Part shown: positions 8,565-45,720 of the stretch, one piece after another | Numbering within the stretch: position 1 is the first letter of the stretch | Layout of the letters: each line of letters begins with the position of its first letter | Assembly (NCBI GenBank): GCA_026004675.1 | Contig: BPJP01000002.1 | Span: forward strand, 653,335-717,334 | Reading direction: 5' to 3' | DNA from: Gemmatales bacterium | GTDB taxonomy: Bacteria > Planctomycetota > Planctomycetia > Gemmatales > Gemmataceae | DNA: 64,000 nucleotides | The notes under the pieces: model-generated | Seen by the model: only the letters and a program-made list of their open reading frames with translations | Told to the model about the DNA's origin: nothing | The model's database searches: none | Position numbers and translations under genes: made by a program

Positions 8565-8851
8565 AGCAGGCCCCCTAACGTTGGTTCGTTCGCTAACTAA
8601 CTATTTTGCTCCTCGCCTTCTCGTTCGGCAAGTGGCCAGCCGTTTTATCGTTGCCGAACAACAGCCAAGCGGGCAAACCGAACAGGTCGCCTCTGACGGG
8701 AAACGACGAATTACGAAGTGCAAGCAGAAAAGTTTCTTGAAAACGCCAGACTCAGACAGAATTGGTTAACCCCCTGTCCGCTCTTATGGTCTAATCGAGA
8801 TATCCTAGCAGGAAGTTGCTAGATTCCTATTTCTCCAACCTGGGTGGCCCC

Positions 8852-13544: not shown

Positions 13545-13553
13545 GGCCTCCGA

Positions 13554-15952: not shown

Positions 15953-15983
15953 ATCCCTGCTCCTTCGCCGCACTCGCGAAGGA

Positions 15984-17264: not shown

Positions 17265-17373
17265 GGCCCACCTGTGCAAAAACAGCGAACGGCACTGCGT
17301 CTATCCGAAGGCAGACACGTGTTGCCGTGCCATTCTCACGGCCTGGTACAATGCCTATTATAGTGGCAACTCC

Positions 17374-17880
17374 TTAACCGTCCGGTTGTTTGGCCGCCGC
17401 CTGCGCCAAACCCAGCAAGTGCTTGAGCTCCCCAGAGAAAACAAAGTTGTGGTCGCCAAAGATCCTTTGCGATCGCGAGCGATCCAGATGAGCGAAAAAA
17501 ATCTCCGCCTCGGCGATGAGGTCCGTATCGCTGTAAACCCGGCCGGCGACAGACGCTCCTTCCGGCCGAAGATGCAGCAGATCGACCTCGTAGCGCAACT
17601 GTTCGCCAGCGGTCGCTTCGCGCCGGAATCGAGCGAACGTGATTTTAGCCAACACGACTTTTTCCTGAAAGTTGTTGGCTTCACCGACCAGGATGCCGCC
17701 CGTCTGGGCTAACCCTTCCAGGATCAACGACGCGGGCATGACTGGATAGCCGGGAAAATGTTCGGCGAAGTAATCCTCAGCGAGACTGAGGTTCTTTATT
17801 GCCGTCGCCCGCTTGCCACTTTCAAATTCCAAAAAACGGTCTATCCAGATCCATCGCATAGGGCCTCTGTAGTCTGGCAC
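17374..17880 (-). CDS. 3-hydroxyacyl-ACP dehydratase (FabA/FabZ hot-dog fold)
   Basis: Hot-dog motif …AEHFPGYPVMPASLILEGLAQTGGIL… 168 aa. Confidence 0.8.
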   Translation of the reverse strand: MPDYRGPMRWIWIDRFLEFESGKRATAIKNLSLAEDYFAEHFPGYPVMPASLILEGLAQTGGILVGEANNFQEKVVLAKITFARFRREATAGEQLRYEVDLLHLRPEGASVAGRVYSDTDLIAEAEIFFAHLDRSRSQRIFGDHNFVFSGELKHLLGLAQAAAKQPDG

Positions 17881-18010
17881 CGATCGTTGCGCACGAAAGA
17901 GCCGCCAACATAGTGAAAAAAGAGAAGGAGTTGCCCGGTTGTGCCGTGGAACTCCTTCTCCCGTATTGTCACCTTCCGATTACACGTAAAGAGCAATTGT
18001 TGGCGAATTC

Positions 18011-18412
18011 CTAATTCTTGCTCGGTTCGCTCAGCTTGCCTTCGATGTAACGGGTGATCATTTCGACGGTAAACAGATTGCTGATATTGCTGACCTCCGG
18101 ATTTTCTTCAAATTTGGACAAGTCAGCGAAAGGCATGCGCTGCCTGAGTTCGGCGATCCCCTTTTCCGTGACTTTTCCATCCTGAACGAATTCGGGGTCG
18201 CCTTGAAAGATCGACTCGGGGAACAGTTCGTTACGGGGAATCTTGATGCCGAATTCCCTTTCCAACCGAAAAACGATGTCGAGAAAATCGATCGATTCCG
18301 CCCCGAGGTCGCCCTGGAGAGTCGACGTAGGTTTGATTTCATCTTCGTCCACATTCAGGGCTTCTACCAACGTCGCGGAGACCTTTGAGTAGATTTCATC
18401 ACGGCTCGACAT
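18011..18412 (-). CDS. acyl carrier protein with a long internal insertion/extension
   Basis: Phosphopantetheine-attachment motif DLGAESIDFLDIVFRLE (Ser in a DSL-like context). 133 aa against about 78 aa for canonical AcpP. Confidence 0.75.
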   Translation of the reverse strand: MSSRDEIYSKVSATLVEALNVDEDEIKPTSTLQGDLGAESIDFLDIVFRLEREFGIKIPRNELFPESIFQGDPEFVQDGKVTEKGIAELRQRMPFADLSKFEENPEVSNISNLFTVEMITRYIEGKLSEPSKN

Positions 18413-18541
18413 TGATCGCTTCCTCCAGAAATAAAGAGCTTAGGAACGAACACGTTCCCTGGTCCGTTGAATATCGCAGCCGATTCATGCCCAGCGCTTG
18501 GAGCGTTCATGAGTCAGCCACGGTCGTTTCCCGCCACAATG

Positions 18542-19301
18542 TTATCCGGCGACCGCACCCAGGCTAAGCCCGCCATCCACCGTGATGACCTGCCCTGTGA
18601 TATAACCACTTTCCTCACTGGCAAGAAACACGGCGACGCGGGCGATGTCTTCTGGTTTTCCGAGCCGGCGCATGGGGATCATCTTTTTGATGATGTCCCC
18701 AGCTTTGTTTCGCACGGCTTCACTCATATCGGTCTCGATGAAGCCCGGGGCGATGGCATTCACGGTGACGTTTCGGCTGGCGAGTTCCACTGCCAAAGCA
18801 CGCGTCAAGGCGTTGATCGCGCCTTTGCTGGCCGCGTAATTGGTTTGCCCCGGGTTCACGTGTTCCGCCGCTACACTAGAAATATTGATGATTCGGCCAC
18901 GCCGCTGTTTCATCAGCGGATAGGCTACCGCTCGACAAAAGTTATAGGTACCCTCCGAGGTTGGTTTGCAACACCTTGGACCACGCCTCAGGCTCGAGGC
19001 GGATGAACAAGTCGTCATGTATGATCCCGGCATTGTTCACCAGAATGTCCAGCCGTTGCCATTCGTTCTGCACGCGTTCAACACAGTTTTGGGCGAAGTC
19101 GGCGTCGCAAACATCACCTTGCAAGGCCAGAATCGTGCCGCCATTCGACTGGACTTCCTGAACGAGTGCGTCCGCTGCTTCTTTGCTGCCTCGATAGACA
19201 AAGGCGACCCTGGCGCCTTCTCGGGCGAAGCGTTCGACGATCGCCCGTCCAATTCCACGGCTGCCACCCGTCACCAAAGCGACCTGGTCCTTCAACAACA
19301 T
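18542..19301 (-). pseudogene. 3-oxoacyl-ACP reductase (FabG-like SDR) split by an apparent frameshift (pseudogene or sequencing error)
   Basis: N-terminal half in ORF 18942..19301 (TGGSRGIGRAI…NNAGI). C-terminal half in ORF 18542..19033 (…RIINISSVAAEHVNPGQTNYAASKGAI…, YxxxK, PGFIETDM). The two frames overlap at about 18940-18960, consistent with a 1-nt indel. Confidence 0.65.
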
Positions 19302-19305
19302 ATCC

Positions 19306-19800
19306 CTACGACCCTATGCCCACGGGATTCGCTGACGTCAAAAACGCATACACGTCGCGCAGATGGTCGATGAGGCGCTGATCGACCGAAGCGCATTCAG
19401 GGCGAGTATCTTTCAAGTTATATTGAAACAACACCAGGCGAGCAGAAACGGTGGTTTGTCCGCCGACTTCGCCCTTCCCTTTCAGCGTCGCCAGGCCGCT
19501 TTCTTCTTGAGCGAGCAGGTCGACAGTGATGTGCATCTGCCGACCGGGTTCCATGAATGTGCCGTATTTAACGTTCTTCGCCTCGCGCAATACGACGAGG
19601 CTATGGCGAAAATCGTTGGTGACCCGCAGCAGCCAGCTTCCCGCCTCCACGAGTGTCTGCAACATGAGCACGCCCGGCATCACTGGAAAGGTCGGGAAAT
19701 GATCCGCCAAATACTCTTCCCCAAGTGTCAAATTCTTGACCGCCTGAACAGACTTTCCCGCCGTCATGGCGGTAATCCGATCCAGGAGGTTGAATCGCAT
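19306..19800 (-). CDS. second FabA/FabZ-like hot-dog dehydratase
   Basis: …ADHFPTFPVMPGVLMLQTLVEAGSWL… 164 aa. Confidence 0.8.
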   Translation of the reverse strand: MRFNLLDRITAMTAGKSVQAVKNLTLGEEYLADHFPTFPVMPGVLMLQTLVEAGSWLLRVTNDFRHSLVVLREAKNVKYGTFMEPGRQMHITVDLLAQEESGLATLKGKGEVGGQTTVSARLVLFQYNLKDTRPECASVDQRLIDHLRDVYAFLTSANPVGIGS

Positions 19801-25888: not shown

Positions 25889-26800
25889 ATGAACGTTGAC
25901 TGGCACGGTGTGTTTCCGGCTGCGTGCACGCACTTTCGCGCTGATGAATCCCTCGATCTGGAGGCGACCATGCGCCATCTCGATGTGATGATCGATGCGG
26001 GCGTGCACGGGTTGATTCTCTTGGGTACAGTCGGTGAAAACTGTTCACTCGAATATTCCGAAAAATTGGAATTGTTACGTACCGCGGTCGCTCATGTGAG
26101 AGGACGTGTTCCGGTTCTGACCGGTGTTGCTGAATGCACGACCCGTCTTGCCTGTCGCTTTGCCAGCGACGCAGAAAAAACAGGCGTGGATGGCTTGATG
26201 GTCTTGCCCGGCATGGTTTACAAGTCGGCAGCGGCGGAAACGGTCGCTCATTTCCGTGCCGTAGCGAGGGCAACAACGTTGCCGATCCTCTGCTACAACA
26301 ACCCTGTATCCTACGGAGTCGATATCACGCCAGAAATGTTCCGCGACCTGGCCGATGAAGAGAATCTCGTAGCCATCAAGGAATCATCGGAAAACGTTCG
26401 CCGCGTGACCGATCTGGTGAATCTGCTTGGCGACCGCTACCGGATTTTCTGTGGCGTGGACGATCTCGTGCTGGAAAGCGTTTTGCTTGGTGCTGTCGGT
26501 TGGGTCGCGGGATTGGTCAATGCTTTTCCGGCGCAAAGCTGCCAGCTCTGGGAACTGGCGACAGCCGGTCGCTGGGAAGAAGCACGGGCCATCTATCGCT
26601 GGTTCACGCCACTATTGCATCTGGATACCTATCCCAAGCTCGTTCAATACATCAAGCTGGCAGTCCAGGAATGTGGTCTCGGTTCGGAAATGGTACGGGC
26701 ACCTCGATTACCCGTATCTGGCGAAGAGCGCGAATGGGTTCTTGGCATTATTCGCCGGGGCATTGAAAGCTGCCCCAACATTCCCGTAACCGTCTCGTAG
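25889..26800 (+). CDS. dihydrodipicolinate synthase / N-acetylneuraminate lyase family protein (class I aldolase/dehydratase)
   Basis: DapA-family N-terminus (…[20 protein letters not shown]…[17 protein letters not shown]…) with TIM-barrel Schiff-base lyase architecture. 303 aa. Confidence 0.75.
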
Positions 26801-26801
26801 A

Positions 26802-27911
26802 ATGGTCATGCGAATCAGCAAAATTTCAGCCTATCGCGTCGAATTGCCACTTCATGAAGGGAGTTATAAGTGGTCCGGAGGCAAATCGGTCGATGTTTTC
26901 GATAGCACCATTGTCCGAATTGAAACGGACGAAGGTGTGGAAGGCTTCGGCGAAGCGTGCCCGTTGGGACCGTACTATCTGCCGGCTTATGCCAGCGGTG
27001 TCCGCGCTGGCGTCGCGGAGTTGGCACCTCATCTTTTAGGCGAAGACCCATTACAACTTGGAAAACTCAACGTTCTCATGGACGCTGCCCTTAAAGGGCA
27101 CGCCTACGTCAAGTCGGCAATCGACATCGCCTGCTGGGACATTCTGGGGAAAGTCGCCGGGCAACCGGTTTGCCATCTCCTGGGAGGGCGCTATGGCGAA
27201 GACTTCGTCCTCTATCGCGCCATTTCGCAGGAAAGTCCCGAAGCTATGGCTCAGCGTGTTGCCGACTATCGCCAGCAAGGCTATCGCCGCTTCCAGTTAA
27301 AGGTGGGTGGCGATCCGGACACGGACATCGAACGTATTCGCGCCGTTGCTGCTGTTTTGCAGCCTGGAGACAGACTTGTCGCCGACGCCAATACCGGCTG
27401 GCTCCCCCACGAAGCCATGCGTGTGATCCGCGGCGTTCGCGACATCGATGTCTATATCGAGCAGCCCTGTTTGACATACGAAGAATGTTTGAACATCCGC
27501 CGACATTGCGATCATCCTTTTGTGTTGGACGAAGTCATCGATGGCGTGGATGTTCTTTTGCGCGGCCGAAATGACCTGGCCATGGACGTGGTCAACATCA
27601 AGATCAGCAAGTTCGGCGGCTTGACCAAAGCCCGGCAAGCGAGGGACCTCTGTGCCTCTCTTGGCATCGCCATGACGATCGAAGACAGTTGGGGTGGCGA
27701 TATCGCGACGGCAGCGATCGCTCACCTCGCCCACAGCACACCGACGCCGTTATTGTTTTCTTCCACCGATTTCAATAGCTACGTGACAGTCAGCACGGCC
27801 GAAGGAGCGCCCAAACGGATTCATGGTCGACTGGCCGCCTCGCTTTCGCCCGGTTTGGGAATCCGCCCGCGAATGGAGGTTCTCGGAAAACCCGTTATCG
27901 AAGTCTCTTAA
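26802..27911 (+). CDS. enolase-superfamily enzyme (mandelate racemase / muconate lactonizing enzyme family)
   Basis: Capping domain followed by barrel motifs (RFQLKVGG…, DANTGW, metal-binding D/E/D context). Start lies 2 nt after the DapA-like stop, so the two are co-transcribed. Confidence 0.75.
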
Positions 27912-33592: not shown

Positions 33593-34040
33593 GAGCTATC
33601 CTCGTTACGATGTGCCTTCACTGATCTTGTCTCAGAAAGGATCGGCGGTCAACGAACCGTTGCTTGTTATCGCTACTTTTCAGGTTGTTCGGTTGGTGCC
33701 GATCCCACTTGTAATTCGCTTGCCTGAGATTGGAATTTAATCAGGCAGAAGGTTCACGCCGGGAATTCCTGGAATCGGTGTGTCAAGCCCAGTTTCCATC
33801 TGGTGAACGTTAGAAGTCGCACGTCGCGTAAAACCGGTTTCCGATTGGGAGGAATTTCACATTCGGTGACTGGAAATTTCGGCTTCCGAAGCGGGTGTGG
33901 CGCATACTGTCATCGGCGGAGCCAACTCTCGGTTCCATTTTGTCGAGGATTGTTCGCCGCCGATTCGAGCTCAACACGTACCGCCAAGAAGTGGACATGA
34001 GGCGTCTGGAATTCAAGACGCGTTGGAGAAGGAGACAGCG

Positions 34041-34250
34041 ATGAAGATTCGTCGTCTAGGACTAGCCCTGGTGATGGTGGCGACGCTGATGTCAACGGGC
34101 TGCTGCTGGTGTTGTTGGCGTTGTTGCCGCCGTTGCGGACCGATCTGTCGTCCGGTTTGCCGGCCAATTTGTGCACCGGTAGGAGACTGTTGTTTTTCCT
34201 CGCCCGCGACGGCAATGCCCCCTTTAGCTCCGATAGACAAGCAACCTTGA
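34041..34250 (+). CDS. small secreted/lipoprotein-like cysteine-rich peptide (69 aa)
   Basis: Strong RBS (GGAGAAGGAGA) 8 nt upstream of ATG 34041. Signal peptide MKIRRLGLALVMVATLMSTGC followed by CWCCWRCCRRCGPICRPVCRPICAPVGDCC, 16 Cys in about 45 residues. Confidence 0.55.
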   Translation: MKIRRLGLALVMVATLMSTGCCWCCWRCCRRCGPICRPVCRPICAPVGDCCFSSPATAMPPLAPIDKQP

Positions 34251-34315: not shown

Positions 34316-35434
34316 TCAGTCGCCTAAATTCGTTCCAACTTGCCGGGCGGACAGGAGCAACGGATGGTCGAGAGGAACTGTTTTTAGTTTGCCTGCTACC
34401 TGTTCGATGGGAACGGAGGTGACTTCCGCCCCTTTGACACAGACCATGCGATTGTACTTGCCCTCGGCGAGGAGTTCGACGGCATGCGTGCCAAGTCGAG
34501 TTGCCAGGATACGGTCGAAGGGAGTAGGCACCCCGCCGCGTTGCAAATGCCCAAGCACAGTGACGCGCGTTTCGATGCCAAGGTTTTCACTGATCTCTTG
34601 CGCGACGCGGCTGCCGATGGAGGTTTCGGGGAGTCGCGTCAGGGACTTATCTTTTTTCTTGCTTTTCTTGTCGTCTTTGCCCGCCGTTGCCGCCGCTCCA
34701 GGTCGAGGCGGCTCTTTGGGCATTGCCCCTTCGGCCACCGCGACAATGCTAAACCACTTGCCGCGTCGGCGTCGTTCTTTCAGGTTATTGCAAACGCTTT
34801 GGATGTCGTAAGGGATCTCCGGGATGAGGATGACGTCAGCGCCGCCAGCGACGCCGGCAGCCAAGGCCAACCACCCCGTCTTGTGTCCCATCAATTCGAT
34901 CACCATAACGCGGAGGTGAGCTTCCGCTGTCGAATGAAGCCGGTCGATTGCTTCCGTCGCGGTTGAGACTGCCGAATCATGTCCGAAGGTAATGTCCGTT
35001 TCCGCCAGATCGTTGTCGATCGTTTTCGGCAGGCCAAGGACGTTCAATCCTCGGGTCATCAAATTGTAGGCTACTTTGTGCGTTCCATTTCCGCCCAAGC
35101 AGACGAGGCAATCCAGTCCCAAACGATGATACGTTTCGACAGCTCGGTCCGTCAGATCGACCGTCTTGCCATGAGGAAGCGGAATCCGGTGCGGCTTTTC
35201 CCGGCTTGTGCCCAAAATCGTGCCACCTACTGCGAGGATACCTGAAACGTCCGGGAGGTGAAGCACACGCGAGTGGTTCTCGACCAGACCACGAAAACCT
35301 TTTTCAATGCCGATCACTTCGATGTGGTAATTGCTGATCGCCGGTTTAACAACGGCGCGAATCGCTGCATTCAGACCAGGGCAGTCGCCACCACTCGTTA
35401 AGATGCCCACAACACGTGAGCGACTTCGTTGCAT
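34316..35434 (-). CDS. pfk: 6-phosphofructokinase (PFK-A family)
   Basis: GILTSGGDCPGLNAAIRAVV and PFK fold throughout. The second motif reads GGNGT instead of GGDGS, so phosphoryl-donor specificity (ATP or PPi) is uncertain. Confidence 0.85.
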   Translation of the reverse strand: MQRSRSRVVGILTSGGDCPGLNAAIRAVVKPAISNYHIEVIGIEKGFRGLVENHSRVLHLPDVSGILAVGGTILGTSREKPHRIPLPHGKTVDLTDRAVETYHRLGLDCLVCLGGNGTHKVAYNLMTRGLNVLGLPKTIDNDLAETDITFGHDSAVSTATEAIDRLHSTAEAHLRVMVIELMGHKTGWLALAAGVAGGADVILIPEIPYDIQSVCNNLKERRRRGKWFSIVAVAEGAMPKEPPRPGAAATAGKDDKKSKKKDKSLTRLPETSIGSRVAQEISENLGIETRVTVLGHLQRGGVPTPFDRILATRLGTHAVELLAEGKYNRMVCVKGAEVTSVPIEQVAGKLKTVPLDHPLLLSARQVGTNLGD

Positions 35435-35717: not shown

Positions 35718-36510
35718 GTGCTTGTGGAAGAACGCCGGCAACGTGTGTTGGACCTGGTCAGCAAGCGTGGATTCGTCACGCTATCTGATCTGTCGAAAAC
35801 GCTGGAAGTTTCCGAATCGACGTTAAGGCGCGATTTGGACCACTGGCATCGTTGCGGCGTACTTCGGCGAACGCATGGCGGGGCGATTTACGTTGGTGAT
35901 TCGGCATTGCCGGCGCTCGAAGAGCGCTCTGACAGCCATCTTGAAGAAAAGCGTCAAATCGCCCGCGCCGCTGCGGACCGCATTCGCGATGGTGACGCCG
36001 TGTTGCTGGATGGGGGGACGACGACCTTGGAGGTGGCTCGTTGCCTGGTTGGCCGCAATCTGCAAATCGTGACGAACAGTTTGCCGATTGCCCAGCTCGT
36101 TGCCAGTCATCGGGAAGGCGACCTTGTTTTTCTCGGTGGTTATGTATTTCCACGGACGGGCGTGGCTTTGGGGCCGATGACCGTACAGGCGCTGGAAGAC
36201 ATCCATGTTCACCAGACGATACTCAGTGTCGGCGGGGGTGACAGAGAAGGGCTTGTTCAACAGTAATCTGCTCTTAGTGGAAACCGAACGTCGCATGCTT
36301 CGCTGTGCCGACGAGGTTGTGGTCGTTGCCGATCACAGCAAGATAGGCCGTCAGGCACTTGCTTTCTTGTGCGAACTCTCTGCTGTCGACACGTTTATCG
36401 TCGATTCTGGCATTACGGCAGAACAGCGGGAAATCCTCGAACGTGCGGGAATTCGATTAATCATCGCAGGGGAGCATACCGAGTCGTGGAGCGACACGCA
36501 TTCGGCATAG
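35718..36510 (+). pseudogene. DeoR-family transcriptional regulator interrupted by a frameshift (pseudogene or sequencing error)
   Basis: HTH …LSDLSKTLEVSESTLRRDLD… and sugar-binding domain in ORF 35718..36266. The C-terminal continuation (…KGLFNSNLLLVETERRMLRCADEVVVVADHSKIG…) is in another frame, 36205..36510. Junction at about 36235-36245. Confidence 0.65.
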
Positions 36511-36549
36511 ATATTGACAAGGCTGATCGACTAGCGAACGAAAGCAACG

Positions 36550-37245
36550 ATGAGTTTAGCAACGATTGATCGCGCAACCATTGAGCGGCTTGTTCGTCAA
36601 AGCCTCGAACAAAGGTTAGGCAACGGTCTGGCGGTTGCCGACAGCGGCACGGCCACGCGAGGGCAACGAACGGCTCCGAAACTGGTCGTCAACATTTCCG
36701 CCCGCCATTGCCACGTTACGCAAGAGGATTTGGAGCGTCTCTTTGGGGCGGGACACCAACTTACCGTGCATCATTGGCTGTATCAAGATGGCTTTTTCGC
36801 GGCCAATGAGACCGTCACCATCATCGGCCCCAGGCAACGGATGATTTCCAACCTCCGTATTCTTGGTCCGTGCCGCGACCACAGCCAGGTCGAACTTGCC
36901 TTTACGGATGCCATTTCTCTTGGACTGGATGTCCCTGTTCGCCGCAGTGGTGATCACCGCGATAGCCCCGGCTGTTGGCTGCTCGGCCCAGCCGGCATGA
37001 TCGAATTAAAGCGCGGCGTCATTCGTCATGAACGCCATGTTCATATGGGGCCGGCCGACGCCGACTATTACGGTGTCAAAGACGGTGACAGGATTCACCT
37101 CCGCGTCAAAAGCACCTGCTCCGCTGTACTCGAAGATCTGCTGGTTCGTGTGGCGCCGAATTCAAAACTGGAAGTTCATCTTGATACCGACGAAGGAAAC
37201 GCCGTCGATCTGCCCCACGCGACCAAAGTGGAGTTGTTTCGTTGA
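36550..37245 (+). CDS. pduL: PduL-type phosphate propanoyl/acyl-transferase
   Basis: Duplicated PduL motifs (VNISARHCHVTQEDL…, HVHMGPADADYYGVKDGDRIHL). N-terminal amphipathic segment MSLATIDRATIERLVRQSLEQRL. Confidence 0.85.
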   Translation: MSLATIDRATIERLVRQSLEQRLGNGLAVADSGTATRGQRTAPKLVVNISARHCHVTQEDLERLFGAGHQLTVHHWLYQDGFFAANETVTIIGPRQRMISNLRILGPCRDHSQVELAFTDAISLGLDVPVRRSGDHRDSPGCWLLGPAGMIELKRGVIRHERHVHMGPADADYYGVKDGDRIHLRVKSTCSAVLEDLLVRVAPNSKLEVHLDTDEGNAVDLPHATKVELFR

Positions 37246-37354
37246 AAAAGCAAATTGTCAGGAAACCTGGTTGACCGATCCCATGGCTCGAAGCAGCGAA
37301 GTCTTCGGGCAATGAGATGACAGCGATGAACCCTAACAAATCGGGAGGTCTTTT

Positions 37355-37666
37355 ATGGCTGGTAACCACATGGAAGCCCTGGGAATGGTTGAAACCAAAG
37401 GGCTGGTGGCGCTTGTCGAAGCGAGCGATGCAATGCTTAAGGCTGCCAATGTCAGTCTCGTCGGCTGGCAGAAGATCGGCAGCGGGCTGGTAACCGCAAT
37501 GGTTCTGGGCGACGTGGCGGCGGTGAAAGCTGCTGTGGACGCCGGCGCGTCGGCGGCGGCTCGCGTCGGGGAAGTTGTCGGAGTTCAAGTCATTCCGCGA
37601 CCCCACGAAGACCTGGGGACCGTCTTGCCGGTTGCCGGCAAGAAAGAGGCTGCTGCGGTCAGCTAA
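37355..37666 (+). CDS. BMC shell hexamer protein (BMC-H, PduA/EutM family)
   Basis: [32 protein letters not shown]…. Confidence 0.9.
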
Positions 37667-37710
37667 CTTCTTTGTCAGTTCCACAATGAAACAAGTTGCG
37701 AGGATTTGTC

Positions 37711-37995
37711 ATGGGAAACAACAACCACGAAGCACTTGGACTGGTCGAAACCAAAGGATTGATTGCCACAGTGTGTGCTACGGATGCGATGTGTAAAGCC
37801 GCCAATGTTACGCTGGCCGGTCAGGTTCAAATCGGTGGCGCCTACGTCACGACATTTGTGCGTGGCGATGTCGGTTCGGTGAGGGCAGCGGTGGACGCGG
37901 GTGCTCAAGCGGCGACTGCTAACGGAGAACTCGTCAGTGCGCATGTAATTCCACGGCCAGAAGAAGCAGTGCTGGATACTTTCCTGGGACGCTAA
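37711..37995 (+). CDS. BMC shell hexamer protein (BMC-H), second paralog
   Basis: [32 protein letters not shown]… ATG at 37711; the upstream in-frame TTG in the track is probably not the start. Confidence 0.9.
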
Positions 37996-39191
37996 TGTTC
38001 ATCCTCGTGGCCAATCTCGGGAGTACGTCTTTCAAATACCGTCTTTTCGACATGACGGACGAAAGGCTGCTTGCGCGTGGCGGTGTCGAACGCATCGGCT
38101 CCGACAAGAGCAGGTCTTTTGTTCAAGTGGGCGAGCAAAGAGCGGAAAACGAGCAGCGCGTTGCCGACCACGCGGAAGCCGTCCGCATCTGCCTCGACCA
38201 CCTGGTCGAGCTTGGCTGCTTGCAGACGCCGGACGATTTGGCGGGTATCGGTTTCAAGGCTGTGCATGCCGAGGGCGTCACAGGCGTTCATCGCATCGAT
38301 GAACGTGTCCTCGAGGCCATGGAGTCTTATGCGGATGTCGCGCCGGCTCACAATCCGCCGTATGTCGCCGCCATGCGCTTGTTGGCGGAGCGATTGCCTG
38401 CTATCCCGCTGGTTGCGGCATTCGAAACAGGATTTCACGAGACGATCCCGCCGGCATTGCGCCACTATGCAGTCCCCAAGGAATGGGCTGACCAATTCGG
38501 CATCAAGCGTTGGGGTTTTCACGGTGCGAGCCACCGCTACATTGCCGAGCGCGCTGCGGCACTCCTGCAGAATCCGAAAGCGAAAATCATTTCGTGCCAC
38601 CTGGGAGGAAGCAGTTCGCTGTGCGCGATCGAAGCGGGCAAATCGGTGGCCAACAGTCTGGGAATGAGTCCCCAAAGCGGTTTGCCGCACAATAACCGCG
38701 TTGGCGATTTCGATCCCTTCGCCTTACCGGCCATCATGCGGGCGACTCGAAAGCCGCTCGAAGAAATCCTGGAGGATCTTGCCAGTAGATCGGGTCTTCT
38801 CGGATTGAGCGGCTCGAGCAACGATCTACGCGACATCGAAGCCGCGGCCAAGAAAGGCGACGCCAGGGCGCAACTTGCGCTCGACGTTTTCGTGGCATCG
38901 GTTCGACAGTACCTCGGTGCCTACCTGCTATTACTCAATGGCGCGGATGCCATCGTCTTTACCGGAGGCATCGGTGAGAATTCCGCGACCATCCGTGCTG
39001 CCGTCTGCGATCGGCTCGACTGGTTCGGCATCGCCCTTGATCCAGCCTGCAATCTCGCGGCGAGTGGGGAAACGCCCATTCATGACCGCACGAGTCGGGT
39101 GCAGATCTGGACGATGCCCACCAATGAAGAACTTATCGTAGCCCGGCAGACACGGGAATGGTTGCTTCGATCGTCTCAGTCGACCGGCTAA
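37995..39191 (+). CDS. ackA: acetate/propionate kinase
   Basis: [17 protein letters not shown]-terminus, acetokinase motifs, 398 aa. ATG overlaps the BMC-H stop (TAATG). Confidence 0.9.
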
Positions 39192-39221
39192 AAGGGCAGG
39201 ATTCGTGAAAGCGAGAAAGCC

Positions 39222-39533
39222 ATGTTTCTAGCCCGCGTCACAGGCAGTGTGGTTTCAACGCAGAAGCTCGATTCGATGACCGGCCGCAAGTTGCTGACCG
39301 TCGAACCGATGCGTATCGATCCCCAGAACCGCGACCGGTTGATCGGCGTTGGCCGAACGTTTGTCTGCGTCGATACCGTCGGCGCTGGGCAAGGTGAAAT
39401 GGTGCTAATCGTTCAGGGGTCGAGTGCACGGATGACGCCAGAGACTGAAAAGCTGCCAGTCGATGCAGCGATTATCGGCATCGTAGATACGGTTAATGTG
39501 GAAAGCAAGACGATATTCTCGGCTAGAGATTAA
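39222..39533 (+). CDS. BMC vertex pentamer protein (BMC-P, EutN/CcmL family)
   Basis: MFLARVTGSVVSTQKLDSMTGRKLLTVEP… 103 aa. Confidence 0.85.
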   Translation: MFLARVTGSVVSTQKLDSMTGRKLLTVEPMRIDPQNRDRLIGVGRTFVCVDTVGAGQGEMVLIVQGSSARMTPETEKLPVDAAIIGIVDTVNVESKTIFSARD

Positions 39534-39542
39534 GGGAACATC

Positions 39543-41066
39543 ATGCAAGTTTCACCAGAATTGATACAAAGTGTTGTCCAAGATGTTCTGCGTCATATGC
39601 GGAATGGTTCGCCGAAAGCAGGACGAAACGGCCACTCTGCAGCTTGGGGTGTCTTCGATCAGGTCGACGACGCCGTTGCCGCCGCGGTCGAAGCACAACG
39701 CGTCTTCGAACGCCGAAGCCTGGACGACCGGAAAAAAGCCGTCGATTGCATTCGCCGCATCTGCGTCGAACAGGCCGACTCTCTCGGTCGCGAAGAGATG
39801 CAGGAAACGAAGATCGGCCGGCTCGTGCATAAGATCGAAAAACTGAAGGTGGCAGCAGAACGGACTCCTGGTGTCGAGTTTCTCAAAACTGACGCCTTCA
39901 GCGGTTCCGCGGGCGTTGCCTTGACCGAGTATGCACCGTTCGGCGTCATTGGCGTGATAACGCCCGTCACCCATTCCCTGCCAACGCTCGCGGGCAATGC
40001 CATCAACATGCTCGCGGCCGGGAACGCTATCGTCTGCAATCCGCATCCCAGCGGCGCTGGAGTCGCGTGTCACGGCACGCAACTCTTCAACCAGGCCATC
40101 TATGATGCTATCGGCATCAACAATCTCATTACCATCATTGGCCAACCCACGCTCGAATCAGCGCAAGCGATCTTCGACCACCGCGATATTCGGCTTTTAT
40201 GCGTCACAGGCGGACCGGCTGTGGGGCGCGCCGCTTTGCGCAGTCCCAAACGGGCGATTGTCGCCGGGCCAGGCAACCCGCCCGTTGTCGTTGACGAAAC
40301 GGCCGACCTGGAAAACGCCGCCCGTTCGATCGTCAAAGGCGCCGGCTATGATAACAACCTGCTTTGCATCGGCGAAAAAGAGGTTTTCGCCGTCGCCGAG
40401 ATTTTCGACGAGTTATTGGAAATCATGACCCGTTGCAGGGCATTTCGCCTGAACCCGAACCAGGTCGATGCGCTGACGAAGGCAGCCCTGGCGCCGGCTT
40501 CCGATTCGGGACAAAAACTCGTCGTTCGAAAGGAGGCGCTTGGACAAGATGCCCGTGTGCTGGCCGAACTGGCCGGGGTCAATGTTCCTCCCGACACCGA
40601 AATCCTGGTCGGCGAAACGGAGGAAAGTCATCCGTTCGTCGACATCGAACAGATGATGCCCTTCGTCCCGTTTGTTCGCGTGCCCGACGTCGATGCCGCC
40701 ATCGAACTGGCCAAGAAGTACGAACACGGTTTCAAGCACACGGCCATCATCCATTCTCGCAACGTCGAGACCATGGCCCGCATGGCCCGGGAAATGGACA
40801 CAACCCTTTTTATTCAAAATGGGCCGAGCATGGCCGGTCTCGGCATCGGCGGCGAAGGCTATCTCAGTTTCAGTATCGCCACGCCGACGGGCGAGGGGGG
40901 TGACAACACCGTTGACCTTTACCCGTCAACGGCGCACGAGCAACATCGGAGTGAAAACCGAGAACTAGAATTCGGGTTTCATGTTCCTCGTTTCAAACTT
41001 ACGTGGCAGTTAACCCGGGCGATGGGTGAAGAGGGGAAGACGAGTGGTCGGTCTTTGTGTTACTGA
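39543..41066 (+). CDS. CoA-acylating aldehyde dehydrogenase (PduP/EutE-like)
   Basis: ALDH fold with catalytic Cys context (NNLLCIGEKE). N-terminal amphipathic helix (PELIQSVVQDVLRHMRN) typical of encapsulated AldDH. 507 aa. Confidence 0.85.
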   Translation: MQVSPELIQSVVQDVLRHMRNGSPKAGRNGHSAAWGVFDQVDDAVAAAVEAQRVFERRSLDDRKKAVDCIRRICVEQADSLGREEMQETKIGRLVHKIEKLKVAAERTPGVEFLKTDAFSGSAGVALTEYAPFGVIGVITPVTHSLPTLAGNAINMLAAGNAIVCNPHPSGAGVACHGTQLFNQAIYDAIGINNLITIIGQPTLESAQAIFDHRDIRLLCVTGGPAVGRAALRSPKRAIVAGPGNPPVVVDETADLENAARSIVKGAGYDNNLLCIGEKEVFAVAEIFDELLEIMTRCRAFRLNPNQVDALTKAALAPASDSGQKLVVRKEALGQDARVLAELAGVNVPPDTEILVGETEESHPFVDIEQMMPFVPFVRVPDVDAAIELAKKYEHGFKHTAIIHSRNVETMARMAREMDTTLFIQNGPSMAGLGIGGEGYLSFSIATPTGEGGDNTVDLYPSTAHEQHRSENRELEFGFHVPRFKLTWQLTRAMGEEGKTSGRSLCY

Positions 41067-41123
41067 TCAAATGCGCAAATAAATGACTCAAATTGGTTTC
41101 TAATTTCTGGTTTTGCTTTCGCC

Positions 41124-41387
41124 ATGCAACTTGCCATCGTCGTTGGTCATGCCGTTTCTACCGCCAAGCACATCAGCCTGGTCGGTTGGAAGCTGATGTT
41201 GGTGCAGCCTCTGACAAGTGACGGTCAAGGCGACGGCGATCCGGTGCTGGCTATCGACCGGCTCGGCGCTGGTATTGGCGACAGGGTGATTATTTCCAAC
41301 GACGGGGCCGGGGCCAGAGAACTGGTCGGTGCACGCAACTCTCCGGTTCGCTGGCTGATTCTAGGTTTATGCGAAGATGTCGGCTGA
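41124..41387 (+). CDS. BMC vertex pentamer protein (BMC-P), second paralog
   Basis: MQLAIVVGHAVSTAKHISLVGWKLMLVQPL…. Confidence 0.85.
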   Translation: MQLAIVVGHAVSTAKHISLVGWKLMLVQPLTSDGQGDGDPVLAIDRLGAGIGDRVIISNDGAGARELVGARNSPVRWLILGLCEDVG

Positions 41388-42018
41388 CGGACCACATAAC
41401 GGATGTCTGCATTGGCCGGCCCGCGTGCTGACCGGCAGCGACCTCCGTGTTTCATGGCATGGCCAGCGCGAACTGGTCGTTGGTGAAAACACTATCATCA
41501 CGCCATTGGCGATGGATTATGTTCGCGCCCACAACATTCGGCTCACCCGGCAGCCGACACCGACAGCGAATGGAACCAAGCGCGCAGCGACGGGAATTGC
41601 TTTAGCTTGCGACTCGCGTTTTTCACAAATGTCGGCCGTGCTGGTTGCGTTAAAGCGCGAAAACATTGAGTTTGCCCAGGTCGCCACTCTGGCCGGGAGT
41701 ATCGCTGAACAGGCACATTCCTTCGCCGAACAATTGGCCAGCGAGCTTTTTCAGGCGGTCGCGATCGTGTGTGACAATGCCGGCCTTGCCTGCTGCATTG
41801 CCAACAAGGTTCGCCGGGTGCGAGCCGTCGCGGTCGCCTCGGTCAACGAAGTTGCCAAGGCTTTGTCGTCCTTTGGAGCGAACTACTTCGCGCTCGATGT
41901 GGAGGGACGGACTTTCTTCGAGTTGAAGCAGATGCTCAAAACCATTGCTGCTGCGAAAAACGCCAATTGCCCTGTTCCCGTGCAACGACTTCTGGAGGAA
42001 ATTGATGCGCATCGCTGA
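41377..42018 (+). CDS. RpiB/LacA/LacB-family sugar-phosphate isomerase-like protein with about 70 aa N-terminal extension
   Basis: Core resembles RpiB motifs: IALACDS (compare GCDH), VCDNAGLACCIANKVRRVRAV (compare ICGTGIGMSIAANKFxGIRAA), SSFGANYFALDVEGR (compare HNDANVLxxGxR). The extension contains the amphipathic stretch ELVVGENTIITPLAMDYVRAHNIRL. Exact start uncertain because of the overlap with the upstream gene. Confidence 0.55.
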   Translation: MSADGPHNGCLHWPARVLTGSDLRVSWHGQRELVVGENTIITPLAMDYVRAHNIRLTRQPTPTANGTKRAATGIALACDSRFSQMSAVLVALKRENIEFAQVATLAGSIAEQAHSFAEQLASELFQAVAIVCDNAGLACCIANKVRRVRAVAVASVNEVAKALSSFGANYFALDVEGRTFFELKQMLKTIAAAKNANCPVPVQRLLEEIDAHR

Positions 42019-42295
42019 AGTCATCGGCAATGTGACCTTATCGCGCTGCCATCCTTCGCTCGTCGGAGCACGTTGGCTGGTTGCGGTTCCATTCAGCCTG
42101 GAGGGCCTTCGACGGGGTGCTCCCGACCGCGAAGACGTGGTGGTTTACGACGGCGTGGGAGCGGGCGTTGGCAGCCAAATCGGCGTCAGTGAAGGAGCCG
42201 AAGCAGCCATGCCCTTTTACCCGGAACGAAAACCTGTCGATGCCTACGCCGCCTGCATCCTGGACAAAGTCACAATCGAGACTCTGACTCAGTAA
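42005..42295 (+). CDS. BMC vertex pentamer protein (BMC-P), third paralog
   Basis: MRIAEVIGNVTLSRCHPSLVGARWLVAVPF… (EutN/CcmL fold). ATG at 42005, internal to the longer ORF in the track. Confidence 0.8.
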   Translation: MRIAEVIGNVTLSRCHPSLVGARWLVAVPFSLEGLRRGAPDREDVVVYDGVGAGVGSQIGVSEGAEAAMPFYPERKPVDAYAACILDKVTIETLTQ

Positions 42296-42436
42296 TCACC
42301 GCCGAGAGCGCGAAGAATGCGGAGCGTGGAACAAGAATTGGCAATCGACTCAGCGTTCTCGGCGTCTCTGCGGTGAGTTGTCTTGAACGCAACTTTCGGA
42401 AATTCGCACCACTGCGGTGAGTATCAGGAGTAACAA

Positions 42437-43276
42437 ATGAACGAATACAAACTGCGAGAACAGATCTGTGAAATCGGTCGGCGCGTCTATAACAAGGGTT
42501 TTGCCGCCGCCAACGACGGCAATATCAGCGTTCGCCTTAACGATCGTGAAGTGTTGTGTACGCCGACGATGGTTTCCAAAGGCTTTATGAAGCCCGAAGA
42601 CCTTTGCGTTGTTGACTACGACGGCAACCAGCTTCGGGGAACGAAACGGCGGACGAGCGAAATTCTTTTGCATCTGGCTGTCTACAAGACTCGTGCCGAT
42701 GTGCAAGCCGTTGTCCACTGCCATCCGCCTCATGCCACAGCCTTTGCCGTCGCCCGCGAGCCGATTCCCAAATGCATCCTCCCCGAAGTCGAAGTCTTCC
42801 TGGGTGAAGTGCCCATGGCGGAATATGCCACGCCGGGCACTCAGGAATTCGCCAACACGATTATTCCATATGTCAAGGATTGCAACACGATCATTCTCGC
42901 CAACCACGGCACGGTGACATTTGGTCCTGACGTCGAAAAAGCCTATTTCAATTCAGAAATCATCGATGCCTATTGTCATATACTTCTCCTTGCCCGGCAG
43001 TTGGGACGCATCAACTATTTCACGGAAGCAGAGACCAAAGAGTTGCTCGACATCAAAAAGCGTCTCGGCTACGACGACCCGCGCTTGCGTTGCGACAATT
43101 GCGATTTGTGCGGCAACAGCATATTCGGCCGTGGCTACAGCGACTTTGTCCCCGAACCCAAAGCTTTCAAACGCGAAGACATAACCTCGCCTTCCAAAAA
43201 CGGTGTGGCGATCAACAACCTCGAATCTCTTGTCAAACTGATCACCGATCAGGTGATGGCACAGCTGGGAGGGTAG
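42437..43276 (+). CDS. class II aldolase (L-fuculose-/L-rhamnulose-1-phosphate aldolase family) with about 70 aa C-terminal extension
   Basis: Aldolase_II motifs (…GFAAANDGNISVRL…, HCHPPHATAFA). The extension carries a CxxCxxC segment (CDNCDLCG) and ends with the amphipathic helix INNLESLVKLITDQVMAQL. Confidence 0.85.
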   Translation: MNEYKLREQICEIGRRVYNKGFAAANDGNISVRLNDREVLCTPTMVSKGFMKPEDLCVVDYDGNQLRGTKRRTSEILLHLAVYKTRADVQAVVHCHPPHATAFAVAREPIPKCILPEVEVFLGEVPMAEYATPGTQEFANTIIPYVKDCNTIILANHGTVTFGPDVEKAYFNSEIIDAYCHILLLARQLGRINYFTEAETKELLDIKKRLGYDDPRLRCDNCDLCGNSIFGRGYSDFVPEPKAFKREDITSPSKNGVAINNLESLVKLITDQVMAQLGG

Positions 43277-43341
43277 TGCCGATCGAAAGGTAGTGATGGG
43301 CTTCGGTCTGCGTACATGTTTGCAAAAACGAGGAATCGATT

Positions 43342-44370
43342 ATGAAAGTCAGCATCATCGGCGGCGGAGGACTTGTGGGCAGCATGACCGCTTTCGCTCT
43401 GCAATGCGGCGGCACCGCCAGCGACATCTGTTTGATTGACGCCAATCACGATTTGGCTCTTGGACAGGCGACCGATCTGCTGCACGGCTCGAGTCTGGTT
43501 GCCGACCAGCGTATCCATGCCGGCGACATGAGCGAAGTCAAAAACAGCGATGTCATCATAATCACGGCCGGCCTGAGACGAAAACCCGATGAAAGCCGAT
43601 TGGACCTCATCAACCGCAACGTCGATCTCTTCTTGTCCATCCTCGACCAGGCGAAATCCGCCGGTATCAAGGAAAACGCCTACCTTATCGTTGTCAGCAA
43701 TCCCGTCGACGTGTTGACCTACCTGGCCGTGCAGCGTTCGGGGTTGCCCTGGCAACGTGTCATCGGCCTGGGCACTCAACTCGACACGGCACGGCTTCGC
43801 AGTTATCTGGCCCAACGGCTTCGTGTTCCTCCAACGCAGGTGCAGGCGCTGATCCTCGGCGAACATGGCGACAGCATGACTCCTATCTGGTCGAGTGCGA
43901 CCATCGCCGGTTTGCCGATGGAACAATGGCCCGGCTTTACTCCCATGCTCCAGCGTGAGGTTTTTGAAGAGACAAGGAAAGCAGGCGCGACCGTCATCAA
44001 ACTCAAGGGAGGATCGGGATTCGCGGTCGGCTTGTCGATCCGGGAAGTGGTCGACTCGATTCTGCGTGACAGCCGGCGGGTGTTGCCGATCAGTTCCCTG
44101 CAACACGGCTGTTACGGCATCCACGACGTCTGTTTGTCGGTGCCGACGGTGGTCGGTTGCGGCGGTGTCCGCGACCAGATCGAATTGCCGCTGACACCCA
44201 AGGAAAAATTAGGCATCCAACAATCGGCTCGCGTCTTGAGGGAAACGATCGATCAAGTCGAAGCTCGCATTGGCCGCAGCGCTCCGATGCCCTCGGTTCC
44301 ACGTACTCCGGTCGCCGCCGCGGTGGTTCATCAAGAGCGGCGCATTCCCCGCAGGGCTTGGGAAAGATGA
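43342..44370 (+). CDS. L-lactate/malate dehydrogenase family oxidoreductase
   Basis: Rossmann MKVSIIGGGGLVG, catalytic GEHGDSM context, 342 aa. Confidence 0.8.
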   Translation: MKVSIIGGGGLVGSMTAFALQCGGTASDICLIDANHDLALGQATDLLHGSSLVADQRIHAGDMSEVKNSDVIIITAGLRRKPDESRLDLINRNVDLFLSILDQAKSAGIKENAYLIVVSNPVDVLTYLAVQRSGLPWQRVIGLGTQLDTARLRSYLAQRLRVPPTQVQALILGEHGDSMTPIWSSATIAGLPMEQWPGFTPMLQREVFEETRKAGATVIKLKGGSGFAVGLSIREVVDSILRDSRRVLPISSLQHGCYGIHDVCLSVPTVVGCGGVRDQIELPLTPKEKLGIQQSARVLRETIDQVEARIGRSAPMPSVPRTPVAAAVVHQERRIPRRAWER

Positions 44371-44502
44371 GAGACGGGAGCAACTGCCCGAAATTGACGT
44401 ACTAGTAAGCGGCAAACTTAATTCTTCGTTCGTCGTTTTGCATCCTTCATTATTCGAAAAAGCGGCGTTTCCAATGAGCCAAGTGAGAAATACGGACAGC
44501 AT

Positions 44503-45720
44503 ATGATGAAGTCTCTCGACGCAAAACTGGCCCGCATTCACGCCGATCCGCACGGCGCCAAAGATTTTATCCTGGCCGATGCCAAGGACGCCGACATGGC
44601 CCTGGCCATCGGTGCTCCGGGGCGGTCGCCGGAAGCGCATGCTGGTGAAACCCGCTATCGCAGCCTGCAGGAATTCCGTGACATCATCGAACAAATCGTC
44701 GAGCAGGGTCTCGTCGACATCATGCTCATGTCGGCAAGTACGAATGAAGTGCTGACCATTCGAAAGCGGATTTTCGACAACAGCCATGTAACGCCGGCGG
44801 CTCGTGCCAACGATACGACCGACATTCACATCATCCGCGGTTCACGCTATCCGGTGTCGCCATCTTTGCCATTCCGCACCGCTACGCTCGATCATATCCA
44901 ATGCGGGCATCTCGATTGTTCGCCGGAAGAGCGATCTCTTGGTGCCGATCTCGGTTTATACAGCATCACGTTCAACAACGATCCGGTATTGGATCGCGAA
45001 GCCTTGGAGGAATACAAGCAGTTTCGGCTTGAGGCGGAACGCAAGAACTTTCGCCATTTCCTGGAAGTATTCGATCCAAATCGGCCCGAAGCCGTGGAAG
45101 CGAGCAAGGTGCCCGAGTTTATCAACGATGCCATCGTTCGCACGCTCGGCGGCGTGACGTCGAAAGGCAGGCCGTTGTTTCTGAAAATGGTCTACCATGG
45201 CCCAAAGGCGATGGAAGAACTTGTGCATTACGATCCGCATCTGGTCGTCGGCATTCTGGGCGGCTCAGCTGGGACGACTTACGATGCGTTCAAACTACTG
45301 AGTGAAGCGAAGAAGTACGGTGCCCGAGTGGCGCTTTTTGGCCGGAAAATCAATCATGCCGAAAACCAACTGGCCTTCATTTACTTTTTGCGCTTGATCG
45401 CTGATGGCGAAATTTCGGCCGAGGAAGCCGTCCGTGCCTACCACGGCGTATTGCAAGAACTTAACGTTCGACCTCATCGGTCGCTTGAAGACGACATGGT
45501 GCTGCAGACCAATATCATGAGTTACGGCGGCAATGGCAAAACAGTGAGTTTTCCGCCACGGCCCGTCGCAACAACGCCGGCAACGTCGAACGGGCAGACC
45601 TGCCGTTGCCAGTGTCAGGCCGAGGCGCGATCGCCGGAAAAAGAACCCGACTTCAGTCGAATGACCCCAGCCGAAAAGGTCGCTTATCACAAAGCCCGCT
45701 GGGATCGCATCCTTGGTTAA
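44503..45720 (+). CDS. putative TIM-barrel aldolase-like protein (class I aldolase/DhnA-like). Family assignment tentative.
   Basis: 405 aa soluble protein with an alternating beta/alpha pattern and a candidate Schiff-base Lys (FLKMVYHG). No decisive motif recognised. Confidence 0.35.
   Translation: MMKSLDAKLARIHADPHGAKDFILADAKDADMALAIGAPGRSPEAHAGETRYRSLQEFRDIIEQIVEQGLVDIMLMSASTNEVLTIRKRIFDNSHVTPAARANDTTDIHIIRGSRYPVSPSLPFRTATLDHIQCGHLDCSPEERSLGADLGLYSITFNNDPVLDREALEEYKQFRLEAERKNFRHFLEVFDPNRPEAVEASKVPEFINDAIVRTLGGVTSKGRPLFLKMVYHGPKAMEELVHYDPHLVVGILGGSAGTTYDAFKLLSEAKKYGARVALFGRKINHAENQLAFIYFLRLIADGEISAEEAVRAYHGVLQELNVRPHRSLEDDMVLQTNIMSYGGNGKTVSFPPRPVATTPATSNGQTCRCQCQAEARSPEKEPDFSRMTPAEKVAYHKARWDRILG

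Follow-up and report, generated by a model that had tools for sequence, protein, structure and literature searches.

The bacterial microcompartment (BMC) of Planctopirus (Planctomyces) limnophila, after which the Planctomycetes–Verrucomicrobia (PVM) type is modelled, and the pvm genes encoding it were reportedly described by Erbilgin, McDonald and Kerfeld in 2014. Here we analyse a locus on contig BPJP01000002.1 of a Gemmatales bacterium, a thermophilic member of this order, which we assign with high confidence to the PVM type of microcompartment operon; the two frameshifts that interrupt it are most likely homopolymer errors. The whole 64,000-nt stretch of DNA that was analysed is called the window; the locus occupies its positions 35718–45720 on the + strand and comprises thirteen co-directional, tightly spaced genes, which were analysed by listing of open reading frames (ORFs) and by profile searches. 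Gene identities were assigned with Pfam and NCBIfam profiles, and copies of the shell genes were sought across the 64-kb window by tblastn.

The catalogue of Sutter 2021, which holds 285 PVM loci, defines the type by two BMC-H and a triplet of distinct BMC-P, and finds it in Planctomycetes and Verrucomicrobia only. To this Axen 2014 (PMC4207490) adds a class II aldolase as the signature enzyme, a DeoR regulator, an acetate kinase and a protein of the lactate/malate dehydrogenase (LDH/MDH) family. The Pvm names used below are those of Sutter 2021 (Supplementary Data 6): PvmB is a phosphotransacylase (PTAC), PvmD and PvmE are BMC-H, PvmG is an acetate kinase, PvmH, PvmK and PvmM are BMC-P, PvmJ is an aldehyde dehydrogenase (AldDH), PvmN is the aldolase and PvmO belongs to the LDH family; PvmL, the remaining one, is related in the same catalogue to a eut_hyp/flavoprotein-like group. 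An encapsulation peptide (EP) at the C-terminus of BMC and PVM aldolases has been described (PMC4594438; PMC4207490). In the GRM5/PVM-like loci of Firmicutes, which serve fucose and rhamnose, lactaldehyde is reduced to propanediol and then dehydrated by a glycyl-radical enzyme (Petit 2013, PMC3557285).

The locus has the PVM shell set, an aldolase with a C-terminal EP, the core and ancillary enzymes and a Planctomycetota host. It shares with the P. limnophila system the DeoR regulator, PTAC, acetate kinase, AldDH, aldolase with C-terminal EP, PvmO and PvmL, as well as the shell set and the phylum; compared by gene names, its order is that of the Pvm letters, running alphabetically through B, D, E, G, H, J, K, L, M, N and O. 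Thus the assignment to the PVM type made in an initial annotation of this stretch is borne out by gene content, order, the BMC-P triplet, the two BMC-H, the lack of BMC-T and the host phylum. The differences are that the host is a thermophilic Gemmatales bacterium known as a metagenome-assembled genome (MAG), that counterparts of pvmC, pvmF and pvmI are not evident, that an extra class I aldolase-like gene lies 3' of pvmO, that PvmO carries a C-terminal IPRxAW tail and that two genes are frameshifted in the deposited sequence.

The host was identified from the proteins of the window, which are 100% identical to entries of the Gemmatales MAG KatS3mg105 and so place it in the Planctomycetota. 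Exact matches include AldDH (GIW79718.1), the truncated DeoR (GIW79711.1), the aldolase (GIW79722.1) and the PvmL-like protein (GIW79720.1), and the product of the terminal gene is identical to hypothetical protein KatS3mg105_1531. The MAG derives from sediment of the Katase hot spring (52 °C, pH 7.2) and was obtained by PacBio HiFi sequencing and assembly with metaFlye 2.8.3 (PMC9671151); microcompartments, fucose and rhamnose go unmentioned in that paper.

Used as a query against 185,579 species genomes, the aldolase retrieved more than 500 relatives, and comparisons were made with the best 80 (L002–L080 denote related PVM loci; labels from L081 onward denote loci carrying relatives of the terminal TIM-barrel protein). 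All of these best 80 belong to Planctomycetota, with aldolase identities of 58–78%, the nearest being those of Gemmataceae/Gemmatales (62–78%). The order deoR-pduL-H-H-ack-P-aldDH-P-(pvmL)-P-aldolase-ldh was found in essentially every assessable locus among them. Some related loci have additional ORFs of ~150–215 amino acids, absent from the window, between pvmN and pvmO or around pvmH and pvmJ (L003 10896–11504, L006 8882–9523, L021 10909–11508, L025 6500–7030, L029 6544–7062 and L017 7206–7670); except for DUF1569 in L017, they have no Pfam match, and they are possible occupants of the unnamed pvmC, pvmF and pvmI positions.

It is very improbable that the locus belongs to another class of aldolase BMC (PVM-like, GRM5, MUF2, ACI or SPU5) and not to PVM proper. 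In these classes, too, a PF00596 aldolase bears a targeting peptide at its C-terminus, the Firmicutes loci such as that of Clostridium phytofermentans also share with it DeoR and an acylating AldDH, and the best solved relative of the AldDH is 4C3S, a GRM5-type enzyme from C. phytofermentans. However, the locus contains no glycyl-radical enzyme, no BMC-T, no PF00389 hydroxyacid dehydrogenase and no PF00701 gene, whereas it does contain the PVM hallmarks, namely an acetate kinase, a DeoR regulator and an LDH-family gene; moreover, the host is a planctomycete, and 80 planctomycetal loci are colinear with this one. The Firmicutes loci have their own gene order and propanediol/glycyl-radical features, none of which was found here.

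All gene classes listed in the initial annotation were recovered at the coordinates given there and on the + strand, with Pfam or NCBIfam matches for all except the terminal TIM-barrel protein, which has no Pfam match, and a borderline one for the PvmL-like protein. The operon opens with a DeoR-family regulator in the pvmA position (35718–36510; HTH_DeoR and DeoRC, spread over two ORFs) and a PduL-type phosphotransacylase (pvmB, 36550–37245; PF06130, 5.9e-69; NCBIfam PRK15070, 233.6 against a cut-off of 209). Two BMC-H genes occupy the pvmD (37355–37666; PF00936, 3.6e-27) and pvmE positions (37696–37995; PF00936, 2.7e-26), and the stop codon of the second is overlapped by the start codon of an acetate/propionate-family kinase (pvmG, 37995–39191; PF00871, 6.5e-102; TIGR00016, 332.9 against a cut-off of 293.4). 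The three BMC-P genes (pvmH position, 39222–39533, PF03319 2e-29; pvmK position, 41124–41387, PF03319 8.4e-25; pvmM position, 42005–42295, PF03319 8.6e-19) are separated from one another by a CoA-acylating AldDH (pvmJ, ORF 39543–41066; NCBIfam PRK15398, 6.7e-174) and by the 213-aa PvmL-like/RpiB-like protein (41377–42018; PF02502, 5.3e-05, sub-threshold). The signature enzyme, a class II aldolase (pvmN, 42437–43276; PF00596 (Aldolase_II), 1.4e-51), is followed by an LDH/MDH-family 2-hydroxyacid dehydrogenase (pvmO, 43342–44370; Ldh_1_N and Ldh_1_C) and by a 405-aa (beta/alpha)8 TIM-barrel protein (44503–45720; here the tim gene).

The five shell proteins pass the profile check that had been proposed for them (PF00936 for BMC, PF03319 for EutN_CcmL). 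The two BMC-H are 61% identical to each other by tblastn, and the three BMC-P are distinct, with pairwise identities of only 29–37% (32–37% for BMC-P 1 against the other two). The domain of BMC-P 3 begins at residue 21 of an ORF started by TTG (41945), which corresponds to ATG 42005; the latter is most likely the start codon. A tblastn search with the shell proteins detected neither additional BMC or EutN genes nor a tandem-domain BMC-T in the 64-kb window, satellite loci elsewhere in the genome being possible. Within that window, the lack of BMC-T noted earlier therefore holds.

Extensions resembling targeting helices were found on three enzymes. PduL has an N-terminal amphipathic extension (residues ~1–40) and aligns with the PDB entries 5CUO/5CUP of PduL (6.4e-39) only from residue 45. 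AldDH, whose closest PDB entries are the BMC AldDHs 4C3S (372 bits) and 5JFL, begins with an EP-like amphipathic helix, SPELIQSVVQDVLRHM, with a hydrophobic moment of 0.72. The aldolase consists of a catalytic core, whose HxH motif can be aligned with that of 6VOQ, and a C-terminal extension of ~70 amino acids. This extension starts with a conserved CDLCGN segment and, after a variable linker, ends in the EP, the amphipathic helix NLESLVKLITDQVMAQL, which is conserved across the loci of relatives. The C-x2-C motif of the CDLCGN segment (residues ~205–225, window 43050–43110) is kept in most PVM loci examined, and Cys-rich CxC stretches recur in the linker of the TIM-barrel protein.

The PvmL-like protein combines an N-terminal PduM/eut_hyp-like motif (residues ~14–59; partial matches to TIGR02536 and PduM) with an RpiB-like domain (74–177) that scores 23.6 bits with PF02502 (LacAB_rpiB) against a cut-off of 24.7. 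An orthologue from Gemmataceae (L002) passes the cut-off with 34.2 bits. The label 'RpiB-like' is acceptable; a PDB sequence search with PvmL returned nothing meaningful.

By homology with P. limnophila, the two BMC-H hexamers would tile the facets of the shell and the three distinct BMC-P pentamers would cap its vertices. The aldolase would be targeted to the interior by its C-terminal helix, and AldDH and PduL by their N-terminal helices. Inside, the aldolase is predicted to split a 6-deoxy-ketohexose phosphate, L-fuculose-1-phosphate or L-rhamnulose-1-phosphate, into dihydroxyacetone phosphate (DHAP) and lactaldehyde. The latter would be held in the shell and oxidised by AldDH to lactyl-CoA, which PduL would convert to lactyl-phosphate with regeneration of CoA, and the acetate-kinase homologue may then form lactate and ATP. 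NAD+ regeneration would fall to the LDH/MDH-family PvmO, and DeoR would act as the local regulator. The Gemmatales-type variant would possess, in addition, a class I aldolase-like TIM-barrel enzyme at the end of the operon, probably acting on a phosphorylated sugar.

Several points weigh against this interpretation. The organism is known as a MAG only; substrate, pathway chemistry and encapsulation are all read by homology with Planctopirus, and the P. limnophila sequence is itself not among the best 80 loci. The aldolase lies below every NCBIfam equivalog cut-off: the best match is 3-oxo-tetronate-4-phosphate decarboxylase (147 against 250 bits), with FucA at 120 against 250. For the substrate, the assignment thus depends on a single model organism; of the fuculose/rhamnulose-1-phosphate aldolase initially annotated, the class II aldolase part stands and the substrate is taken from the Planctopirus system. 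The larger ORFs of the 64-kb window that were scanned include no isomerase, kinase or transporter for fucose or rhamnose. In PvmO, an Arg of MDH type sits poorly with a role as lactaldehyde reductase. Finally, were the frameshifts real, the regulator and a key dehydrogenase would be damaged.

The two frameshifts affect deoR and aldDH. The deoR gene is split into ORFs 35718–36266 and 36205–36510 by a +1 frameshift at a G5 run (36234–36238); positions 2–109 of the DeoRC profile lie on the first ORF and 101–160 on the second, in the +1 frame. Removal of one G yields a 263-aa DeoR which reads ...ILSVGGVTEKGLFNSN..., and deoR is a single ORF in all 15 relatives compared. The aldDH ORF (39543–41066) loses its frame at a G6 run (40895–40900), after which it reads ...IATPTGEGGDNTVDLYP...; the +1 frame gives ...GEGVTTPLTFTRQRR..., equal to the conserved C-terminus of relatives, with a stop at 40968 and a corrected protein of 474 amino acids. 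Relatives have G5 or no run at this site, and two of them, L016 and L021, match it codon for codon but with a run of five Gs, in frame. A third split gene lies outside the locus: an SDR/FabG-like gene on the minus strand (18542–19313; ORFs 18942–19313 and 18542–19036) breaks between Pfam profile positions 112 and 110, with a +1 insertion at GGG ~18951–18953. It sits in a cluster (11841–19800) with two ketoacyl synthases, two FabA-like dehydratases, an ACP, a GH3-family adenylating enzyme and an alpha/beta hydrolase. Overlaps at nuoJ/nuoK, between a sigma factor and a FecR-DUF3160 gene and between a cupin and AcrB were considered as frameshifts and rejected, these being separate intact genes.

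All three split genes carry +1 insertions in G runs, at ~1 per 21 kb of the window. The text of the paper describing the source MAG contains neither a word beginning with 'polish' nor 'Illumina' (PMC9671151). Homopolymer error in an unpolished HiFi/metaFlye assembly is the most likely origin of both frameshifts, that of deoR and that of aldDH; this explanation is the most economical because there are three G-run +1 lesions, one of them outside the locus, in such an assembly. If the frameshifts were real, by pseudogenisation or by slipped-strand on/off switching at the G runs, the operon would be decaying and non-functional. This would agree with the presence of both frameshifts in the deposited MAG proteins (GIW79711.1, 182 amino acids; GIW79718.1, 507 amino acids), with the fact that G-run insertions, found in all three cases, are a substrate of phase variation and with the location of two of the three split genes in the 10-kb locus; yet, by a binomial estimate, chance would place two of three lesions in 10/64 of the window with a probability of ~0.065. 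Furthermore, the unrelated SDR gene bears a lesion of the same kind, the remaining genes of the locus are intact and 60–90% identical to relatives, homopolymer indels are the expected HiFi error in an unpolished metaFlye assembly, and similar truncations occur in other long-read MAGs (AldDH of L008, TIM gene of L004). We therefore consider decay improbable. The truncated L008 aldDH (7945–9261) and L004 tim (352 amino acids) are from long-read Microflora Danica 'MFD' bins, and both are consistent with assembly indels being common in long-read MAG data. The initial description of the locus as complete must be qualified: all the gene classes listed with it are present, but two of the genes are frameshifted as sequenced, probably as an assembly artefact.

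PvmO passes neither NCBIfam cut-off for its family, scoring 295 against 303.55 as L-LDH and 280.5 against 283 as MDH. Residue 102 is Gln in LDH, and Arg at this position is a signature of MDH. An alignment with the Thermotoga maritima LDH (1A5Z; ...GVPQKPGETR...) places an Arg of PvmO (...GLRRKPDESR...) at the Gln102 position, and this Arg is found in 61 of 62 PvmO orthologues. PvmO also has a C-terminal tail of ~35 amino acids ending in IPRRAWER; the motif IPR(A/S)AW(Q/E) is conserved in Gemmatales loci only, and the PvmO of Planctomycetaceae (307–310 amino acids) lacks the tail. In the scheme of Axen 2014 (PMC4207490), PvmO is predicted to be an NAD+-regenerating, alcohol-dehydrogenase-like core enzyme. 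It had been suggested for this locus that the LDH-family enzyme could oxidise lactate to pyruvate; lactate oxidation is unlike the predicted role of PvmO because it would yield more NADH and consume NAD+, and the residue at position 102 is that of MDH.

The terminal gene encodes a protein for which no Pfam match was obtained, also with six diverse homologues, so that the family profile PF01791 is not matched either. A PDB sequence profile search gave nothing relevant, and NCBIfam gave only a 16-bit partial match to PRK07226 (ADH synthase). An AF2 model built from 33 sequences of ~80% identity was unusable (pLDDT 47.9), whereas 64 diverse sequences gave a model with pLDDT 85.8, which has a (beta/alpha)8 core, a disordered linker (342–377) and a C-terminal helix (389–404). 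With this model, all 50 of the PDB matches listed by Foldseek were class I aldolases of the DeoC/LacD/DhnA superfamily (E ~1e-9, target TM 0.55–0.80), among them Streptococcus pyogenes LacD, the Methanocaldococcus jannaschii ADH synthase MJ0400, Escherichia coli LsrF and the Thermoproteus tenax fructose-bisphosphate aldolase. The label 'TIM-barrel protein' can thus be sharpened to a class I aldolase fold. RPLFLKMVYHGP (K228, FLKMVYHGP), GGSAGT and FGRKI are invariant in the 64 aligned homologues, and the K228 segment lies where the weak ADH synthase match aligns, in the C-terminal third of ADH synthase. K228 and the GGS/GRK motifs are consistent with a putative Schiff-base lysine and a phosphate-binding site. 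Most likely the protein would cleave or form a phosphorylated ketose. With LacD, the archaeal fructose-bisphosphate aldolase Ia/DhnA, MJ0400 and LsrF it shares the predicted fold and, at the weak ADH synthase match, the Lys-x-x-Tyr-x-Gly motif; it differs from them in an identity of only 10–16% and in ~70 extra C-terminal residues, which form the disordered linker and a conserved helix.

The gene was found 3' of pvmO in 22 of 58 assessable loci, namely all Gemmatales-type loci together with Gimesia, Kolteria and a few others, and was absent from the other 36, mostly of Planctomycetaceae. Its product is ~80% identical among 120 metagenomic relatives, and the family comprises 1,181 representatives at 50% clustering, mostly labelled 'hypothetical'. 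Short forms (~330–340 amino acids) from Alpha- and Betaproteobacteria have no tail and occur in sugar/polyol operons that also encode PfkB, ADP-PFK or FGGY kinases, SDR or Zn-dehydrogenases, ABC transporters and regulators of the DeoR or ROK type. Two cluster representatives, P0124 (L087 4165–6348) and P0193, are fusions of the TIM-barrel protein with a PfkB kinase; in Shinella (L081 8001–10081) the two genes are adjacent and overlap.

The tail consists of a variable, often CxC-containing linker followed by the helix ...PDFxxMTxxEKvAYHKARWDRILG, and is kept in all complete PVM-linked orthologues, the exception being the truncated 352-aa copy of L004; in this architecture it is similar to an encapsulation extension. 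The hydrophobic moment of the helix is modest (0.41) and its sequence is basic, unlike the targeting helices of the locus. Distant paralogues that lack the Lys (P0217, P0180) keep a tail of the form PDFxxMTxxxKLxYNxxxRDRIFG and are not next to BMC genes; they are translationally coupled to an FHA-GAF-sigma54-activator gene, whose start they overlap by 4 nt (L086 10001–13071; L089 433–3458; L088 1192–3788). This suggests a sensor or pseudoenzyme role for these paralogues, with the tail as an interaction motif. Because Lys-less paralogues outside BMC loci carry the tail, it is not specific to encapsulation, and the view of it as a straightforward EP is weakened; encapsulation is only one possibility.

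These data bear on an alternative that is possible, though we consider it unlikely: the Gemmatales subtype would handle a different or additional sugar phosphate, the TIM aldolase-like protein and the RpiB-like PvmL forming a second signature module, as in SPU microcompartments, whose signature enzymes are PF01791 and PF02502. The RpiB-like character of PvmL, the LacD/DhnA/DeoC-superfamily fold of the TIM-barrel protein with its conserved Lys motif and phosphate-type GGS/GRK motifs, and the synteny of tim in all Gemmatales PVM loci argue for it, as do the kinases, SDRs and sugar ABC transporters beside the shorter relatives and the two PfkB fusions. Against it are the failure of the TIM-barrel protein to match PF01791, the 36 of 58 PVM loci without tim, the basic tail unlike canonical targeting helices of the locus and the occurrence of that tail on the Lys-less paralogues coupled to the FHA-GAF-sigma54 activator, away from BMC genes. 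An RpiB-like protein, a DeoC/LacD/DhnA-superfamily barrel and a BMC-P triplet are common to SPU microcompartments and this locus; however, here the two proteins are not encoded by adjacent genes and give no match and a borderline match, respectively, with the SPU-defining Pfam models, the aldolase, kinase and LDH-family genes are those of PVM, and there is no BMC-T, which most SPU types typically possess.

A more specific proposal, which we offer as speculative and doubtful, is that the Gemmatales-type loci, with some of Gimesia and Kolteria, constitute a distinct PVM subtype, in which a class I (Schiff-base) sugar-phosphate aldolase recruited by its tail would act with PvmL as a third catalytic module and a second aldehyde entry, and in which PvmO, with its MDH-type Arg and its own IPRxAW tail, would recycle NADH by reducing a dicarboxylic or other doubly anionic 2-oxo acid such as oxaloacetate instead of converting lactaldehyde to propanediol.

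The divergent gene upstream of the locus (pfk, 34316–35434) encodes a phosphofructokinase of the PfkA family, and it had been proposed to channel the DHAP released by the aldolase. Phosphofructokinase phosphorylates fructose-6-phosphate, and DHAP is not among its substrates; in addition, the 10 kb that precede the aldolase contain no pfk in the 80 related loci. The channelling proposal is therefore unsupported, pfk was rejected as part of the BMC system and its adjacency is regarded as incidental. Between an NfeD/SPFH pair and pfk there is a small ORF (33897–34250, + strand) whose product has an N-terminus resembling a signal peptide and, after it, an extremely Cys-rich sequence, CCWCCWRCCRRCGPICRPVCRPICAPVGDCC. 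Directly after the nuo genes (nuoJ, nuoK and nuoN were identified) lie a DHDPS-family gene and then a cis-3-hydroxy-L-proline dehydratase equivalog (25889–27911, + strand; 601.7 bits against a cut-off of 500). This DHDPS/enolase-superfamily pair was considered as a non-phosphorylative route from fuconate or rhamnonate to lactaldehyde and rejected since the second gene is the hydroxyproline dehydratase equivalog; by its sequence matches it looks like a hydroxyproline catabolic pair that is unrelated to the BMC. Scans of the locus for sigma70-type promoters and for terminators gave results at or below the expectation from shuffled sequences and were uninformative.

The organelle type is known, and the present locus is one more added to the hundreds already catalogued. 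Its description carries a practical warning, namely that intact operons can look broken in unpolished HiFi MAGs. The presence of a malate-dehydrogenase residue in PvmO, the assumed NAD+ regenerator of all PVM compartments, makes the cofactor-recycling step of these compartments testable. Similarly, a little-characterised family with a predicted class I aldolase fold regularly supplies the 3' gene in one PVM subtype, which makes the substrate-entry step of the PVM model testable as well.

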